DNA from: a virus
Direction: 5' to 3' (one strand)
DNA length: 39,847 nucleotides
IMG/VR virus record: IMGVR_UViG_3300025876_000005
Span: 136,643 to 176,489 of that record
Part shown: in pieces, positions 1-4,785 of the stretch
Position numbering within the stretch: the first letter of the stretch is position 1
Layout of the letters: every line of letters begins with the position of its first letter
Notes under the pieces: generated by a model
What the model was told of the DNA's origin: nothing
What the model saw: only the letters and a program-made list of their open reading frames with translations
Databases searched by the model: none
Position numbers and translations under genes: made by a program

Positions 1-25
1 GAGGGTTCGAGTCCCTCCTTGAGTA
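1..25 (+). tRNA. 3' fragment of a tRNA (T arm and acceptor 3' strand); identity outside window
   Basis: GAGGG-TTCGAGT-CCCTC T arm followed by CTTGAGT-A. Confidence 0.8.
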
Positions 26-43
26 CTAATTTTCAAAAAGGTT

Positions 44-72
44 GAAACTTTTAGCAAGTGAGCTGATATATA
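44..72 (+). promoter_or_regulatory. Putative phage promoter GAAAC-N17-ATATAT (also matches late-type GATATATA) upstream of leader ORF and tRNA array
   Basis: Same GAAAC-N16/17-ATAWAW spacing recurs at 2375, 3545, 3849, 9096, 11768, 14499, 19013. Confidence 0.6.
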
Positions 73-102
73 CCTAACAAATAACAAGAAAAACTAAGTT
101 CA

Positions 103-189
103 ATGAAACGCAGTCATACATATATGGTCGATTTTGGATGGTCACAGGCGATTAAGCCATGTGAGCTCAGAGGCCCGAATATTGTATGA
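103..189 (+). CDS. Leader peptide MKRSHTYMVDFGWSQAIKPCELRGPNIV (28 aa, all 20 amino acids); putative attenuator peptide
   Basis: ATG103-TGA189 after A-rich leader; 26 distinct codons in 28; overlaps antiterminator GAGGCCC 170-176. Confidence 0.75.
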   Translation: MKRSHTYMVDFGWSQAIKPCELRGPNIV

Positions 190-226
190 ACTTAAGTAGA
201 TAGAACATATAATATAACTTAGAAAT

Positions 227-258
227 AAGGGCCTCATCGCAAGATTGAGGCCCTTTTT
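227..258 (+). terminator. Intrinsic terminator of putative attenuator, directly upstream of tRNA-Ser
   Basis: AAGGGCCTCA(227-236)/TGAGGCCCTT(246-255), GCAA tetraloop, T-run; 5' arm can alternatively pair with 170-176. Confidence 0.8.
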
Positions 259-264
259 CATTTT

Positions 265-351
265 GGAAGATTGACAGAGTGGTCGATTGTGGCTCCCTGC
301 TAAGGAGTTGGTCCCGAAAGGGGCTCGGAGGTTCGAATCCTCCATCTTCCG
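265..351 (+). tRNA. tRNA-Ser(GCT)
   Basis: GGAAGAT/ATCTTCC acceptor, loop CT-GCT-AA, long variable arm, G discriminator. Confidence 0.95.
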
Positions 352-355
352 CAGA

Positions 356-367
356 GTTCTTTAACAT
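356..367 (+). promoter_or_regulatory. boxA-like antitermination site
   Basis: GTTCTTTAACAT resembles rrn boxA TGCTCTTTAACA. Confidence 0.55.
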
Positions 368-438
368 ACGTCTGACAGGCAAGGTGCCGCACAGGTCTCC
401 AAAACCTCGTGGGTAGGGTTCGATTCCTTACAGGCGTG
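368..438 (+). tRNA. tRNA-Trp(CCA)
   Basis: ACGTCTG/CAGGCGT acceptor, loop CT-CCA-AA, short D arm. Confidence 0.85.
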
Positions 439-458
439 CAAAAAACTTTGAAAAAAGT

Positions 459-510
459 TGCAAGAAAGTTTTTCAGTGTCAAATATTCTTATTATATTTG
501 CACTGCAATA
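459..510 (+). promoter_or_regulatory. Early (host Bacteroidota sigma) promoter
   Basis: TATATTTG at 493-500 matches TAnnTTTG -7 element; one of 7 near-identical copies. Confidence 0.7.
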
Positions 511-519
511 AACAAAATG

Positions 520-536
520 GTTCTTTGACATATTGG
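520..536 (+). promoter_or_regulatory. boxA-like antitermination site
   Basis: GTTCTTTGACATATTGG just downstream of a promoter; repeated at 2423. Confidence 0.65.
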
Positions 537-552
537 TAAAATTAAGAAAATG

Positions 553-679
553 CAGATATTACTTCTGATTTGAAAGCTGGTCTAACGGCCCAGCCGATAT
601 GCTTAAGTAAGTCTTAAAGAGACCGGCTCTTTTAATATTTGGAGGGATATAGATGCTCCCGAGTAGGTGCAAGGCCTAC
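553..679 (+). ncRNA. Structured RNA candidate
   Basis: CAGATATTA/TAATATTTG enclosing GCTGG/CCAGC, TTAAG/CTTAA, AGAG/CTCT hairpins; then GGAG/CTCC and T-arm-like GTAGG-TGCAAGG-CCTAC. Confidence 0.4.
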
Positions 680-684
680 AAAAT

Positions 685-755
685 TGTCCTGTGGTGTAAA
701 GGCAGCACATCTGGTTTTGGTCCAGAGAATCGAGGTTCGAATCCTTGCGGGACAA
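685..755 (+). tRNA. tRNA-Gln(TTG)
   Basis: TGTCCTG/CGGGACA acceptor, loop TT-TTG-GT. Confidence 0.93.
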
Positions 756-760
756 CTATA

Positions 761-838
761 TTGCGATGGTGGTACAGAGACAGTCTCATGAGCTGTATTG
801 GGTAGCTCCCCTCCGAGGTTCGATTCCTCAATCGCAAC
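761..838 (+). tRNA. Atypical tRNA with CAT anticodon (reduced D arm, variable hairpin)
   Basis: TTGCGAT/ATCGCAA, ACAGT-CTCATGA-GCTGT, GAGG-TTCGATT-CCTC; no normal D arm. Confidence 0.6.
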
Positions 839-843
839 TATTT

Positions 844-918
844 GACCTCGTAGCTCAGTTGGTTTAGAGCTTCCGACTTTTAATCGGAAGGCCGTGGGTT
901 CGAGTCCCACCGGGGTCA
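844..918 (+). tRNA. tRNA-Lys(TTT)
   Basis: GACCTCG/CGGGGTC, loop CT-TTT-AA. Confidence 0.95.
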
Positions 919-920
919 CA

Positions 921-1040
921 AGCTGTTCTGCATCAGAAGTGCTGGTTAGTGAAACACCTAATCGATGAGCCCATCAAAATGTGAGGTTAGAGCTGAAATA
1001 ACCTACCGCGTTATCTATAACGTAGCTATCGGATATAGTT
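921..1040 (+). ncRNA. Structured RNA candidate (string of hairpins)
   Basis: TTCTG/CAGAA, GGTTAG/CTAATC, GATG/CATC, AGGTTA/TAACCT, CGTTAT/ATAACG; two TGAAA loops. Confidence 0.4.
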
Positions 1041-1061
1041 TTAAAGAAAAAGCTCTCTTAT

Positions 1062-1144
1062 GCCCGAGTGGTGGAATTGGTAGACACACTAGATTTAGGA
1101 TCTAGCGCCATTATGGTTTGAGAGTTCGAGTCTCTCCTTGGGTA
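1062..1144 (+). tRNA. tRNA-Leu(TAG)
   Basis: GCCCGAG/CTTGGGT, loop TT-TAG-GA, variable arm. Confidence 0.95.
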
Positions 1145-1147
1145 CAA

Positions 1148-1242
1148 TGGGAATATACCGATACTGGTTAAATGGCAGTTCAATTCTGTCCGATAGTAGG
1201 TCTCCACCTTGAGACGGGTGCTACTATCGTAGGTAATTCCCA
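1148..1242 (+). ncRNA. Unrecognised T-loop ncRNA, copy A (permuted tRNA-like)
   Basis: TGGGAAT.TACC/GGTAATTCCCA closing stem; GGCAG-TTCAATT-CTGTC; CGATAGTAG/CTACTATCG; CACC/GGTG. Confidence 0.65.
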
Positions 1243-1246
1243 AATT

Positions 1247-1321
1247 GCTCTCTTAGCTCAGTTGGTTCAGAGCGCTAGTTTTACACACTAGATGTCGCAA
1301 GTTCGAATCTTGCAGAGAGCA
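1247..1321 (+). tRNA. tRNA-Val(TAC)
   Basis: GCTCTCT/AGAGAGC, CTAGT-TTTACAC-ACTAG. Confidence 0.93.
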
Positions 1322-1347
1322 CAAACAACCAGAGTCGACGCTGGTTG

Positions 1348-1440
1348 GATCGGGTGGTGAAATTGGTAAACACGGGGACATCCCTGCTCTATTTATGACG
1401 TCTGATATAGAGCTTGCAGGTTCGAGTCCTGCCCTGATCA
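1348..1440 (+). tRNA. Leu-type tRNA body with truncated anticodon arm and enlarged variable arm
   Basis: GATCGGG/CCTGATC-A, class II D arm GTG-AAATTGGTAAA-CAC, GGGG-ACAT-CCCT mini arm, GCTCTAT/ATAGAGC arm, GCAGG-TTCGAGT-CCTGC. Confidence 0.7.
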
Positions 1441-1446
1441 CAATAT

Positions 1447-1529
1447 GGGGACTGAAAGTCGTTTGGATACGGCAGCGAGACTGTAAATCTCGTCTTTAAT
1501 TAGGAGTGGTTCGAGTCCACCAGGCCCCA
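1447..1529 (+). tRNA. tRNA-Tyr(GTA), possibly 8/4 acceptor/T-stem fold
   Basis: GCGAGA-CTGTAAA-TCTCGT; GGGGACTG/CAGGCCCC; GTGG/CCAC. Confidence 0.85.
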
Positions 1530-1534
1530 CAAAT

Positions 1535-1607
1535 GCACTTATAGTTCAACTGGATAGAACACTCGGCTACGGACCGAGAGATAAGGGTTCGAATCCTTTT
1601 AAGTGTA
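1535..1607 (+). tRNA. tRNA-Arg(ACG)
   Basis: GCACTTA/TAAGTGT, loop CT-ACG-GA. Confidence 0.95.
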
Positions 1608-1613
1608 CAATTT

Positions 1614-1686
1614 GGTACCTTAGCTCAGATGGTAGAGCACAGGACTGAAAATCCTGGTGTCCCCAGTTCGATCCTGGGAGGTACCA
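1614..1686 (+). tRNA. tRNA-Phe(GAA)
   Basis: GGTACCT/AGGTACC, loop CT-GAA-AA. Confidence 0.95.
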
Positions 1687-1690
1687 CAAA

Positions 1691-1840
1691 TACCTTAGTA
1701 GTGAACCCGAGTCCCAACGCCTGATCAGTTAGTAGGAGGAGGTAGTAATAAAAGTGGTATCAGTAGGTAGCCCAATAGGGTGCAGATAAACTAATGCATG
1801 ATGCGAGTACAGGGAACCAGCCCGATGACTCTACCTACGC
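1691..1840 (+). ncRNA. Structured RNA candidate(s)
   Basis: GTAGGTAG(1763-1770)/CTACCTAC(1831-1838) enclosing CCC/GGG, TGCA/TGCA, GAGT/ACTC, GGG/CCC. Confidence 0.45.
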
Positions 1841-1845
1841 ATTTT

Positions 1846-1918
1846 CGGGATGTGGCGCAGTTGGTAGCGCACCGCGTTTGGGACGCGGGGGTCACAGGTT
1901 CGAGCCCTGTTATCCCGA
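1846..1918 (+). tRNA. tRNA-Pro(TGG)
   Basis: CGGGATG/TATCCCG, loop TT-TGG-GA. Confidence 0.95.
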
Positions 1919-1924
1919 CTAAAT

Positions 1925-2001
1925 TGGAATGTAGCTCAGTTGGTTAGAGCACTTGCCTGATACGCATGTGGTCGGCGGTTCGAGTCCGCCCATTCCAACC
2001 A
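1925..2001 (+). tRNA. tRNA-Ile(GAT), CCA encoded
   Basis: TGGAATG/CATTCCA-A-CCA, loop CT-GAT-AC. Confidence 0.9.
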
Positions 2002-2005
2002 ATAT

Positions 2006-2083
2006 TGCGGGATGTGTAGAAATTGGTTATCTCGTCGGTCTCATAAGCCGAAGTTCCGGGTTCAAGTCCCGGTCCCGCAACCA
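2006..2083 (+). tRNA. tRNA-Met(CAT), initiator-like acceptor, CCA encoded
   Basis: TGCGGGA/TCCCGCA-ACCA, TCGGT-CTCATAA-GCCGA. Confidence 0.88.
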
Positions 2084-2087
2084 ATAT

Positions 2088-2161
2088 GGTGATTGTAGCT
2101 CATTTGGTAGAGCGCCTGATTGTGGTTCAGGAGGTAGCGGGATCGTAACCCGTCTTTCACC
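2088..2161 (+). tRNA. tRNA-His(GTG)
   Basis: G-1/C73, loop TT-GTG-GT; variant T loop, two acceptor mismatches. Confidence 0.88.
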
Positions 2162-2163
2162 CA

Positions 2164-2291
2164 AAGGAGAGGCAGTTCAAGCTGTAGTTAGCACACCACT
2201 GATAAGGGTGACTATACTGAAAAAGGGTTAAGATTAAGTATAGGTAAAATCAGGCTGACCAGTAACCCTGTAAGACCCAGAGCCTCTTCTT
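2164..2291 (+). ncRNA. Unrecognised T-loop ncRNA, copy B
   Basis: AAGGAGAGGC/GCCTCTTCTT closing stem; GGCAGTTCAAGCTGT; GTAGT-[5 nt]-CACC...GGTG-ACTAT; GGGTTA/TAACCC. Confidence 0.6.
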
Positions 2292-2295
2292 TTTT

Positions 2296-2369
2296 GGCGA
2301 AGTACCCAAGTGGTCTAAGGGAGCGGATTGCAACCCCGTTATTCGTTGGTTCGAATCCAACCTTCGCCT
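2296..2369 (+). tRNA. tRNA-Cys(GCA)
   Basis: GGCGAAG/CTTCGCC-T, loop TT-GCA-AC, U discriminator. Confidence 0.93.
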
Positions 2370-2374
2370 CAAAT

Positions 2375-2439
2375 GAAACAAAGAATTAAGAATGTTATAT
2401 AATCAACGTTATTAAAACAATAGCTCTTTGACATATTGG
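2375..2439 (+). promoter_or_regulatory. GAAAC-type promoter followed by boxA-like site (2423-2439)
   Basis: GAAAC-N17-ATATAA then GCTCTTTGACATATTGG. Confidence 0.65.
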
Positions 2440-2456
2440 TATATTAAGAAACAGTA

Positions 2457-2517
2457 AGAGTGCTTACAGCAAATTTACAAACATTTGACTTTTATTCAAA
2501 CACGTTTACGCACTCTG
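2457..2517 (+). ncRNA. Armless tRNA-like mini-RNA 1 (Lys TTT anticodon loop)
   Basis: AGAGTGC/GCACTCT-G 7-bp stem, TTACAGCAAATTT, TTTGA-CTTTTAT-TCAAA. Confidence 0.65.
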
Positions 2518-2526
2518 GTCTTTTTA

Positions 2527-2583
2527 AGGATGCTTCCAGCAAATTTAACTTATACAATTAGGAAGTAAACAAGCAGCATCCTG
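2527..2583 (+). ncRNA. Armless tRNA-like mini-RNA 2 (possible TAG loop)
   Basis: AGGATGC/GCATCCT-G 7-bp stem, TTCCAGCAAATTT, TAC-AATTAGGAA-GTA. Confidence 0.55.
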
Positions 2584-2591
2584 TTATATTT

Positions 2592-2665
2592 GGGGGTATA
2601 GCTCAGTTGGCTAGAGCACTTGCCTTGCACGCAAGGGGTCGTGGGTTCGAATCCCTCTACCTCCA
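2592..2665 (+). tRNA. tRNA-Ala(TGC)
   Basis: GGGGGTA/TACCTCC with G3:U70, loop CT-TGC-AC. Confidence 0.95.
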
Positions 2666-2700
2666 CTAACTACCGTTTCCATAAACAAAACGATAAAATT

Positions 2701-3087
2701 ATGGAACAATTAATTACATTTGTTCTAGGTGTTCTTTCAGTGGTTGCAGTCGCAGCTGTTGTGAGAGTGTTTGGGATGAAGAAGACAGTTGCCTTGATGA
2801 TCGATGATCGGATAGACGACGTAACACAAGAACTACATGGTCGAATAGACATGGTAGAACGAGAACTAGAAGAGGTTGATAATAGGCTATATGAATATAT
2901 AGATCAGCTACACAGTAAACACGATGAAGATGTGGATAAGATTTATTCTTACATTGATTCAAGAACGGACAAAATGGCAGACGGCACTGCTAAACATATT
3001 GCCGATATAAACGCTAGATTTAATGACAATACAGCGTTTGTAGATCTACTTTCGCATAGAATAGAAGATCTAGAAAGTAAGTCATAA
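2701..3087 (+). CDS. Membrane-anchored coiled-coil protein embedded in tRNA array
   Basis: Start at ATG2701 (listed 2620 start overlaps tRNA-Ala); N-terminal hydrophobic helix then acidic heptads. Confidence 0.75.
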   Translation: MEQLITFVLGVLSVVAVAAVVRVFGMKKTVALMIDDRIDDVTQELHGRIDMVERELEEVDNRLYEYIDQLHSKHDEDVDKIYSYIDSRTDKMADGTAKHIADINARFNDNTAFVDLLSHRIEDLESKS

Positions 3088-3179
3088 ACAAACCCGGAAA
3101 CGGTAGTTAAAAAAATAGGGACTATAATCGAGCAGCTGGAATACTAGTTAGCATAAGACTAGGATTTAAGTCCCCATTT

Positions 3180-3253
3180 GCCTCAATAGCTCAGTTGGCC
3201 AGAGCAGCTGATTTGTAATCAGCAGGTCGTGGGTTCGAATCCCTCTTGAGGCT
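3180..3253 (+). tRNA. tRNA-Thr(TGT)
   Basis: GCCTCAA/TTGAGGC, loop TT-TGT-AA. Confidence 0.95.
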
Positions 3254-3260
3254 CACATAT

Positions 3261-3337
3261 AGCGGGGTGGTAGCAGTTGGTAGCTCGCGAGCCTCATAAG
3301 CTCGAGGTCGGCGGTTCGAGTCCGTCTCCCGCAACCA
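3261..3337 (+). tRNA. tRNA-Met(CAT), initiator-like (A1:A72 mismatch), CCA encoded
   Basis: AGCGGGG/TCCCGCA-ACCA, CGAGC-CTCATAA-GCTCG. Confidence 0.9.
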
Positions 3338-3358
3338 ATGAGATATAAGTCTCAACAC

Positions 3359-3443
3359 AGAGGAGTGCCAGAGCGGTCGAATGGATCGGTCTTGAAAACC
3401 GACGTACGGCAACGTACCGGGGGTTCGAATCCCTCCTCCTCTG
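3359..3443 (+). tRNA. tRNA-Ser(TGA)
   Basis: AGAGGAG/CTCCTCT-G, loop CT-TGA-AA, variable arm. Confidence 0.95.
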
Positions 3444-3449
3444 CTAAAC

Positions 3450-3523
3450 AGTCCAGTAGCTCAGCTGGTTAGAGTGCCGCCCTGTCACGGCGGAGGTCGC
3501 GGGTTCGAGTCCCGTCTGGACTG
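3450..3523 (+). tRNA. tRNA-Asp(GTC)
   Basis: AGTCCAG/CTGGACT-G, loop CT-GTC-AC. Confidence 0.95.
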
Positions 3524-3574
3524 CAATTTATACCAATATGTCTTGAAACATAACCTTAATTGGTTATATAAAGA

Positions 3575-3804
3575 ACGGTTCTTGAAACAGTAATACACAA
3601 AAGCTGTGAATAGAATTTTACCGAGGGTTTAGGAATGGCTCCAGAGCAGAGCGTCACAATTGTCCCTATAAACAAAAGACGTAGATGCTTGGTTAGTAGG
3701 CAGAGTGAGCAATGACTGCCGATTTACCCTAAAAATGTTCTAGTGGGAAACCGGTTCCCTGTGAAAATCAAACTAAATTCAGGGCCTCACGACGGCGAGG
3801 CGGC
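3575..3804 (+). ncRNA. About 230-nt structured RNA candidate with own promoter (3545-3571) and terminator
   Basis: No ORF of 60 aa or more; hairpins CGTC/GACG, GGCAG/CTGCC, CCCTG/CAGGG, GCCTC/GAGGC. Confidence 0.5.
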
Positions 3805-3842
3805 AAGGAGAGTTCGGTTCGGTAAACTGGCTCTCCTTTTTT
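3805..3842 (+). terminator. Intrinsic terminator ending RNA array
   Basis: AAGGAGAG/CTCTCCTT plus T-run. Confidence 0.8.
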
Positions 3843-3894
3843 ATGTTTGAAACTTTGTCTAAATTTAGCATAAAACAGTTAAACAACTTTAAAG

Positions 3895-4785
3895 ATGAAT
3901 ATACTTGCAAATGATGGTTTACATGAACTGGCAATTAATAAATTAGAAGAGCTAGGACATAAGGTCTTCACAGAACATGTTGAGCAGAAAGACTTGGCAG
4001 TCTGGATTAATGAGAATGAGATTGAAGCACTCTTTGTACGCTCAGCGACTAAAGTTAGAGAAGATCTAATCAAGAACTGTCCTAATTTAAAGTATATTGG
4101 CCGTGCTGGTGTGGGCCTAGATAATATCGACGTCGACCATGCTCAAGAGCAGGGTCGACATGTCTTTAACACACCAAAAGCAAGTTCAAGATCAGTGGCT
4201 GAACTGGTGATGACTTACATCTATGACTGGAGTCGTAGAGTAGGGCCGGCAAACTACATGATGAGCAACGCTGCGTTCAATGATGTTAAAAAAGGCATCT
4301 CAAGAATCTCGTATGAAGTCCAAGGTAAAACTCTAGGTGTTATTGGCTTTGGCAATATAGGTCAAACGGTGGCCAAGCTAGCTGAAGCAAACGGTATGGA
4401 TATTTTAGTATATGATCCGAATGTAGACTGTAAATGGTCAACTTCAATGGAGACACTCTTGATCGAGTCTGACTTTATTACAGTACATATTGGTGGCAAA
4501 GCTGAAGTGCTTAAGGCTGCTGATTTTGAGATGACAAAACCAAGTGCTGTTGTGATTAACACTTCTCGTGGTGGCTGTGTCAACGAAGAAGATCTACTTA
4601 ATGCTATCAAAGAAAAGCAACTTGCCGGAGCATGTCTGGATGTTTTCACGAATGAACCTGAGCCAGATCGTAGACTCTTAAACAATTCAAGAGTGATTGC
4701 AACACCACATATCGGTGGCTCAACCAACGAGGCTCAGGTTAAAATTGGACTTGAACTAGTAAGTCAGCTTGAGGAATTAGCATAA
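3895..4785 (+). CDS. serA: D-3-phosphoglycerate dehydrogenase / D-2-hydroxyacid dehydrogenase (no ACT domain)
   Basis: ILANDG start, VRSATKV, RAGVGLDNID, GVIGFGNIG Rossmann, INTSRG, DVF.NEP, TPHIGGST.EAQ. Confidence 0.88.
   Translation: MNILANDGLHELAINKLEELGHKVFTEHVEQKDLAVWINENEIEALFVRSATKVREDLIKNCPNLKYIGRAGVGLDNIDVDHAQEQGRHVFNTPKASSRSVAELVMTYIYDWSRRVGPANYMMSNAAFNDVKKGISRISYEVQGKTLGVIGFGNIGQTVAKLAEANGMDILVYDPNVDCKWSTSMETLLIESDFITVHIGGKAEVLKAADFEMTKPSAVVINTSRGGCVNEEDLLNAIKEKQLAGACLDVFTNEPEPDRRLLNNSRVIATPHIGGSTNEAQVKIGLELVSQLEELA

Follow-up and report, generated by a model that had tools for sequence, protein, structure and literature searches.

A codon-diverse leader ORF inside a phage tRNA array, probably part of a multivalent attenuator responsive to the supply of tRNA

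Why phages carry tRNA genes and how these genes are controlled is an old open question, for which the current answers are compensation for codon usage and replacement of tRNAs destroyed by host defence. In the locus described here, within a tRNA array, a promoter motif is followed by a short ORF using all 20 amino acids and by a predicted terminator that ends directly before a tRNA gene. The window (the whole stretch of DNA that was analysed) is the last 39.8 kb of a 176,489-base IMG/VR record (G000:C1:136643-176489) estimated to be 59% complete. Judging from the sequence and its relatives, we consider it probable that positions 41-264 of the window are a multivalent leader-peptide transcription attenuator sensing tRNA supply, with which the phage would probably make more tRNA only when decoding is slow. 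The region starts with the following features.

1-26, plus strand: 3' end of tRNA-Leu(UAG), with which the upstream block closes (ARAGORN, spacer listing).
41-73, plus strand: phage-type promoter motif, recognized by its recurrence, with TTGAAAC (42-48), a spacer of ~17 nt and GATATATAC (65-73).
103-189, plus strand: leader ORF read from the sequence, with an ATG start and 28 codons plus a TGA stop (187-189).
227-264, plus strand: predicted intrinsic terminator, with arms at 227-236/246-255, a 9-nt loop and a T tract to 264.
265-352, plus strand: tRNA-Ser(GCU), the first putatively gated gene, directly after the end of the T tract at 264.
368-439, plus strand: tRNA-Trp(CCA), the second putatively gated gene, low-scoring and called by ARAGORN at a relaxed threshold only.

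The terminator and tRNA-Ser lie too close together for a promoter to fit in, and this gene would be made by read-through alone. The tRNA-Trp(CCA) at 368-439 was called neither by default ARAGORN nor by Rfam at E up to 1. In all, 19 tRNA species are found downstream of the leader, in a block that extends to about 3840. The initial annotation had described the leader as gating a tRNA array, but the ORF is not at the head of that array: ARAGORN run on the whole record gave an upstream block of six tRNA genes and a tmRNA-like gene, in the order Glu, Asn, tmRNA-like, Leu-UAA, Arg-UCU, Met-CAU, Leu-UAG. The unit is mid-array, after six tRNAs that have their own codon-matched leader (see below). A cmscan of window positions 1-4000 against Rfam at E up to 1 returned only tRNAs and weak chance matches, and none to the leader (Trp, His, Leu, Thr, Phe), T-box or sRNA families.

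Some spacers of the array have features of their own. The one between tRNA-Asn and tRNA-Leu(UAA), upstream of the window (L001:765-1013, i.e., G000:C1:135907-136155), contains a tRNA-like acceptor/T-arm piece and then a tmRNA-like 5' piece whose tag reading frame ends in ALAA-stop; it looks like a permuted two-piece tmRNA, and was called as such by ARAGORN at a relaxed threshold only. Two inter-tRNA spacers within the window (757-843 and 1146-1246) have a tRNA-like T-arm and acceptor, were uncalled by default ARAGORN and may be degenerate or unusual tRNAs. A non-tRNA spacer of ~125 nt is conserved between tRNAs in the window (2163-2295) and in two distant relatives (L045:12577-12701 and L020:12727-12833), with matching ends and a possible long closing helix.

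The composition of the leader ORF is its most visible property. All 20 amino acids occur in its 28 codons, 19 of them in the first 22, and 26 of the codons are distinct, ATG and ATT alone being used twice. The probability of finding all 20 in 28 codons is 4.3e-4 if frequencies are equal, and falls to between 2.5e-5 and 4e-5 when the codon usage of the phage is applied. In the window, 315 ORFs have 28 codons or more, and this is the only one with all 20 amino acids; it also holds the top rank for diversity among the 3379 short ORFs of ~1 Mb of DNA from related phages. Where the anticodon is GNN, the leader has the U-ending wobble codon in all nine cases (P 0.008, post hoc). Because chance meets such ORFs in a scan over tens of millions of short ORFs, the P value for all 20 amino acids is by itself indecisive, and the case is one of context and replication rather than of the all-20 property alone.

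For the RNA from 84 to 264, the predicted fold consists of the terminator and a long hairpin within which the ORF lies (-52.2 kcal/mol, z = -4.9 against shuffles; the z scores of the sister unit and of the relative L045, both described below, are -5.0 and -6.3). Its elements are as follows.

112-137, plus strand: segment 1, the 5' strand of the long hairpin, pairing with 166-192 in the minimum-energy fold.
142-164, plus strand: apical hairpin of the same fold, a putative RNA polymerase pause hairpin.
166-192, plus strand: segment 2, the 3' strand of hairpin 1:2 in the fold, with GAGGCCC (170-176), the last ORF codons and the stop.
170-235, plus strand: antiterminator, 170-176 with 229-235 around an inner hairpin at about 179-214, from folds of truncated transcripts.

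The hairpin at 142-164, first described from the sequence alone, is present in the predicted minimum-energy fold, and one of its pairs shows a compensatory change in the relative L144. The predicted terminator stem (227-255) is GC-rich and has 10 bp, and GAGGCCC (170-176) is the exact complement of GGGCCTC (229-235) in its 5' arm. Duplex energies are -19.1 kcal/mol for 3:4, -16.8 for 2:3 and -13.7 for 1:2. When the transcript is cut at 236, folding predicts the antiterminator both in the absence of a ribosome and with a ribosome at codons up to ~22, and a modelled ribosome at codon 23 to the stop frees the terminator 5' arm. In the full-length transcript at equilibrium, the terminator forms in every ribosome state. 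Only the truncated RNA shows a switch, at codon ~23, and since the complete RNA always prefers the terminator, the choice between the two structures must be kinetic, as it is in classical attenuators. According to these models, an untranslated RNA may terminate, if 1:2 forms first, or read through, as 2:3 is more stable. The start codon is partly paired in the full-length folds.

Upstream complements of this kind are uncommon at other terminators. Among 247 other terminator-like hairpins from related phages, nine have an upstream complement of at least 7 nt to the terminator 5' arm and only one has a complement of at least 8 nt, compared with all six unit lineages (7, 10, 8, 8, 9 and 9 nt, in differing registers). 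Terminators were found with a custom hairpin finder; a sigma-70 promoter/terminator scanner missed the one with the 9-nt loop.

The components of a leader-peptide attenuator are thus found together, i.e., a 5' short ORF, an intervening predicted terminator, a predicted exclusive antiterminator and matching putative regulatory codons (see below), and the unit is classed as a variant rather than as a member of a named leader family because the regulated genes are tRNAs and not proteins of biosynthesis or aminoacylation. In the mechanism that we propose, the phage-type promoter (42-73) would start the RNA, whose first feature is the 28-codon ORF, and while the polymerase makes 227-264, either the antiterminator (170-176/229-235) or the terminator (227-236/246-255) would form. 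Under smooth translation, a ribosome at codons 23-28 or the stop would cover 170-176, the terminator would form and transcription would end at 258-264; a ribosome stalled at codons 2 to ~22 would leave 170-176 free, and the polymerase would read through. The attenuator would set transcription into tRNA-Ser(GCU) and tRNA-Trp directly and, as the polymerase continues, into the remaining genes of the block up to about 3840. Shortage of any downstream tRNA, or slow decoding, would raise the whole set and enough tRNA would shut it off, with a negative feedback loop on tRNA supply as the net effect.

The sensing codons of each leader were defined from structure alone, as the positions of a stalled ribosome that leave the terminator 5' arm paired upstream in a transcript cut after the arm. 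The ribosome was modelled with a footprint of -15 to +14 nt around the A site and a threshold of 0.85, a rule of our own choice.

106-168, plus strand: predicted sensing codons 2-22 (ribosome-mask folding, coverage simulation).

Downstream tRNAs match 18 of the 21 sensing codons (P 0.01) and three of the six later ones. The sensing codons cover 17 of the 19 downstream species with strict wobble and 19 of 19 with relaxed wobble, a coverage reached in 0 of 200,000 simulations (P at most 5e-6). The Asn and AGA-Arg codons are in the tail that is covered for termination and the Glu codon (21) is at the edge of the sensing window, and the tRNAs for Glu, Asn and AGA-Arg are encoded in the upstream block. 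The 20 amino acids of the leader can therefore be accounted for by a near-complete downstream tRNA set plus three tail codons; in this sense "all 20" is partly incidental, and the leader samples the tRNAs that it precedes. For the initial annotation, which had proposed a pan-tRNA attenuator, this means that the trp-like attenuator reading is retained, with comparative evidence in its favor, but that the unit would sense its own downstream set. Sensing of all 20 amino acids was rejected on the position of the Asn, AGA-Arg and Glu codons and the upstream location of their tRNAs.

The upstream tRNA block has a unit of its own.

135501-135675 of the record (G000): sister (paralogous) unit, with the same promoter, a 24-codon ORF and a terminator, 1.2 kb upstream.

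The 3' part of the sister ORF contains a 10-nt perfect complement of its terminator 5' arm. Its sensing codons are 2-14, and 11 of these 13 are read by its six downstream tRNAs, whose share of codon usage is 0.24 (P 6.6e-6), while later codons were matched in 1 of 10 cases. All six downstream species are covered (P 5.6e-3), and the codon matching of this leader is the single best among 1417 ORFs in the record. Each of the two leaders is also depleted in the codons of the other block (anti-matched). The sister unit would exert the same control over its six tRNAs, with a leader restricted to their codons.

The promoters of the two units may be read by a phage sigma factor. This gene and further motifs of the array are the following.

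L007:888-1505 (G000:C1:134882-135499): phage ECF-type sigma gene (Pfam Sigma70_r2 and r4_2).
356-367, plus strand: boxA-like motif, GTTCTTTAACAT, after tRNA-Ser, repeated after promoters in the array and in relatives.
447-516, plus strand: host-type promoter-like repeat (Bacteroidota TAnnTTTG), repeated at no fewer than four other sites of the record.
2371-2410 of the window: leaderless phage-type promoter, by motif, TGAAAC ... TTATATAA (about 2375).

The end of the sigma gene adjoins the sister leader unit, 1.2 kb upstream of the promoter in the window. The exact 12-nt core of that promoter occurs at three sites in the record, each ahead of an ATG ORF, and the motif precedes most of the homologous leaders in relatives. 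As the promoters of the leader units (TGAAAC ... GATATATA) resemble ECF promoters, the sigma factor may drive them, and it probably reads the one at 41-73. The two internal promoters that had been put forward as a bypass of the attenuator are both present, a host-type one at 447-516 and a leaderless phage-type one at about 2375. The first, presumably a promoter by the published Bacteroidota consensus, can serve tRNA-Gln and the genes after it without passage through the attenuator; the second is followed by a boxA and then by tRNA-like units and tRNA-Ala. Given these two promoters, only tRNA-Ser and tRNA-Trp would depend wholly on read-through. The boxA-like motif, GTTCTTT(A/G)ACAT, was found at 356-367, 519-537 and about 2423 of the window as well as after promoters in many related loci, and we infer its function from that of the rrn boxA.

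To find relatives, the sigma protein was used as a query and retrieved 45 IMG/VR and 80 metagenome loci, all of marine type. BLAST searches of GenBank phages, near and distant, gave the tRNA-Ser as sole match and no relatives, and the sigma protein search gave only uncultured, Lak and crAss-like phages at 24-32% identity and no isolate relative in the phage collection. The exact terminator sequence is present in two IMG/VR contigs. The same leader was found in the close relatives L008, L009, L057 and L115. Compared with L008 and L115, only 2 of 154 nucleotides differ in the region 103-256, the sole change in the ORF being synonymous, whereas the promoter spacer and tRNA-Ser are 37-39% different and tRNA-Trp is replaced; the terminator is unchanged. 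As 103-256 is kept while its flanks diverge, the unit behaves as a conserved cassette in a mosaic. In the near-identical relative L009 (L009:11812-12452), tRNA-Leu(UAG) is separated from the leader unit by an additional promoter and an ORF with a P-loop motif (GxxGxGKS), and a tRNA-Ser allele that is 39% different stands beside an identical leader.

More distant relatives, with sigma proteins 55-66% identical, have homologous units. In five diverged relatives (L045, L067, L072, L020 and L144), a short ORF and a terminator precede tRNAs, mostly with a similar promoter. L144 is treated below; the other four are as follows.

L045: 25 codons, 18 different residues, antiterminator of 8 nt, tRNA-Cys 9 nt after the terminator.
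L067: 31 codons, 19 different residues, antiterminator of 8 nt, then tRNA-Cys.
L072: GTG start, 29 codons, 18 different residues, antiterminator of 9 nt, then tRNA-Trp.
L020: 45 codons, 19 different residues, antiterminator of 9 nt with one G-U, a host-type promoter and then the array.

The leader peptides are nearly unconserved across homologues, with only the start MxTLxxH in common, while their diversity is kept, as had been predicted: the combined probability for L045, L067, L072 and L020 is 1.2e-5 with the window leader left out, and leaders of these units rank 1st, 3rd and 6th in diversity among the 3379 short ORFs. Compared with the window, L045 has C to T changes in segments 2 and 4 and a G to A change in segment 3, i.e., paired changes. 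The antiterminator pairing is kept in four relatives, but in L144 it is weak (~5 nt). A tRNA abuts the terminator in four lineages. As for codon matching, the sensing codons cover 9 of 10 species in L045 (P 8.5e-4) and 11 of 13 in L067 (P 1.3e-4); in L072, 8 of 15 are matched (P 0.01). The L020 leader showed no significant matching, and its tRNA list may be cut by the contig end. In L020 and L072, segment 2 is so distant from the stop codon that a terminating ribosome would leave it uncovered. When five lineages were combined, P was 1.3e-7 for the matched fraction and 1.2e-11 for coverage, and the pooled early codons were matched in 67 of 96 cases versus 19 of 52 for the late ones (P 9e-5). 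The L045 phage has a second tRNA cluster 50 kb away (L055:1500-3470, i.e., G001:C1:69500-71470), in which phage-type promoters lie directly before tRNAs, without leader or terminator, indicating that attenuation is limited to some tRNA blocks.

These comparisons bear on a very unlikely alternative, namely, that the hairpin is an insulating terminator or a processing signal between tRNA blocks and that the ORF and its composition arose by chance. All 20 amino acids in 28 codons are indeed expected by chance among tens of millions of short ORFs, random sequence quite often stays open for 28 codons in a given frame, and the internal promoters would restart transcription anyway. However, chance does not explain why the features recur in the paralog as well as in five or more diverged homologues, the combined P values being 1e-5 for diversity and 1e-7 to 1e-11 for codon matching, independent of how the window leader was selected, and both the dedicated promoter before the ORF and the segment-2 pairing, which is rare at other terminators, argue against it.

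The conservation of the region could also reflect RNA constraints alone, as would be expected if 41-264 were a self-contained small RNA or micropeptide gene, the tRNAs being made by leaky read-through and from the next promoter. The layout of promoter, hairpin and terminator is typical of small RNAs (z = -4.9), the start codon is partly paired and the 1:2 helix is conserved in L144 with a compensatory change. We nonetheless regard this as quite unlikely, since it leaves unexplained why, in several lineages, the codons of the leader correspond to the tRNAs behind it, why the ORF persists despite turnover of its peptide, why the 3' part of the ORF pairs with the terminator arm in differing registers and why a tRNA abuts the terminator in four lineages; moreover, the peptide is neither hydrophobic nor conserved, and there was no Rfam match. 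A gene for a type I toxin or small membrane peptide was considered separately and rejected: the leader peptide is polar and mixed by inspection, without the hydrophobic character and conservation of such peptides, and its homologues share just MxTLxxH.

Further units before tRNA blocks, forming an independent set, were obtained by scanning IMG/VR with the promoter motif alone. One of them is L158, whose leader has 23 codons, 15 of them Leu or Ser, and precedes tRNA-Leu(GAG), tRNA-Ser(UGA) and five more Leu tRNAs (P 3.8e-5). This locus (L158:741-1190 and 2623-3601) contains six tRNA-Leu genes with four anticodons plus a tRNA-Ser, and a terminator with a 9-nt antiterminator pairing. The L189 leader has 19 different residues in 31 and covers 9 of 10 species, and the L188 leader covers 8 of 9. 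L144 is the closest diverged homologue, alignable to the window leader, and keeps the 1:2 helix with one compensatory change. No significant codon matching was found for the L144 and L170 leaders, whose tRNA lists may be cut by contig ends. For the independent set as a whole, the combined P values were 2e-3 and 1e-3, with several loci cut by contig ends and their tRNA lists therefore incomplete.

The leaders without significant matching (L144, L170 and L020) would fit a translation-coupled attenuator that reads overall translation capacity (ribosome availability, ribosome-polymerase coupling, general elongation speed) instead of particular tRNAs, its varied codons serving to avoid amino-acid bias. 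Along the same lines, the window leader, taken by itself, has a matched fraction of modest significance (P 0.01), read-through is the predicted outcome for untranslated RNA, and one codon per tRNA species makes a poor sensor of a single species; indeed, such a leader should be a weaker sensor than the his or leu leaders with their runs of codons. A capacity sensor has no need, however, of leaders like those of the sister unit and L158, which are low in diversity and use few codons other than those read by the tRNAs behind them, nor of matching that is confined to the codons ahead of segment 2 (67/96 versus 19/52), nor of two leaders in one record that divide the codons as the two tRNA blocks do. 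For these reasons we hold it to be unlikely and retain the sensing of tRNA supply as the probable function of the unit.

Several known systems resemble the unit in part. Enterobacterial multivalent leader attenuators include ilvGMEDA (Ile/Leu/Val) and thr (Thr/Ile), besides the classical trp, his and leu leaders. The unit shares with these a short leader ORF that would be translated, an antiterminator that competes with a terminator, and a ribosome whose position would decide between them. Its putative regulatory codons likewise correspond to the products of the genes behind them, and sensing need not be limited to a single amino acid. Unlike in these systems, tRNA genes and not biosynthetic enzymes would be regulated, the setting is a phage, and up to 17-19 tRNA species are sampled about once each and not in runs. 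In addition, the untranslated state is predicted here to read through, unlike in trp. The pheM leader of Escherichia coli pheST, which attenuates an aminoacyl-tRNA synthetase in response to the level of charged tRNA, is similar in applying leader-peptide attenuation to a component of the decoding machinery, but it is cellular, concerns one amino acid (Phe) and has a protein gene as its target. T-box riboswitches likewise sense tRNA status through a choice between terminator and antiterminator; however, they bind uncharged tRNA directly, by a specifier codon and the T-box motif, and free of translation, while the unit described here has an ORF in their place. A full-text literature search, with most subscription journals outside its coverage, gave no report of tRNA genes, whether of phages or of cells, being controlled by leader-peptide attenuation. 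What would be new here is that the logic of classical attenuation is put to use on tRNA genes, and with a leader that is multivalent to an extreme degree.

A leader with one codon per tRNA could, more tentatively, be seen as a phage alarm for the loss of any tRNA. Resupply might then be triggered by anticodon nucleases of host defence (of the PrrC, RloC or VapC kind), by host shut-off or by codon-usage mismatch, and a stall at any of ~18 codon types might switch on the whole phage tRNA set. It is conceivable, although doubtful at this point, that the leader, the sister unit, the tmRNA and the phage sigma factor together make up a self-regulating decoding module.

If leader codons spell the tRNAs that follow, the phage would measure decoding directly and make tRNA on demand, which would give either view of phage tRNAs, codon-usage compensation or replacement of destroyed tRNAs, a concrete and testable mechanism. 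The units are short and self-contained, with clear mutational predictions, and could serve as reporters of tRNA supply. They would extend leader-peptide attenuation from amino-acid and synthetase operons to tRNA genes, and would exceed any known case in the number of species sensed per leader.
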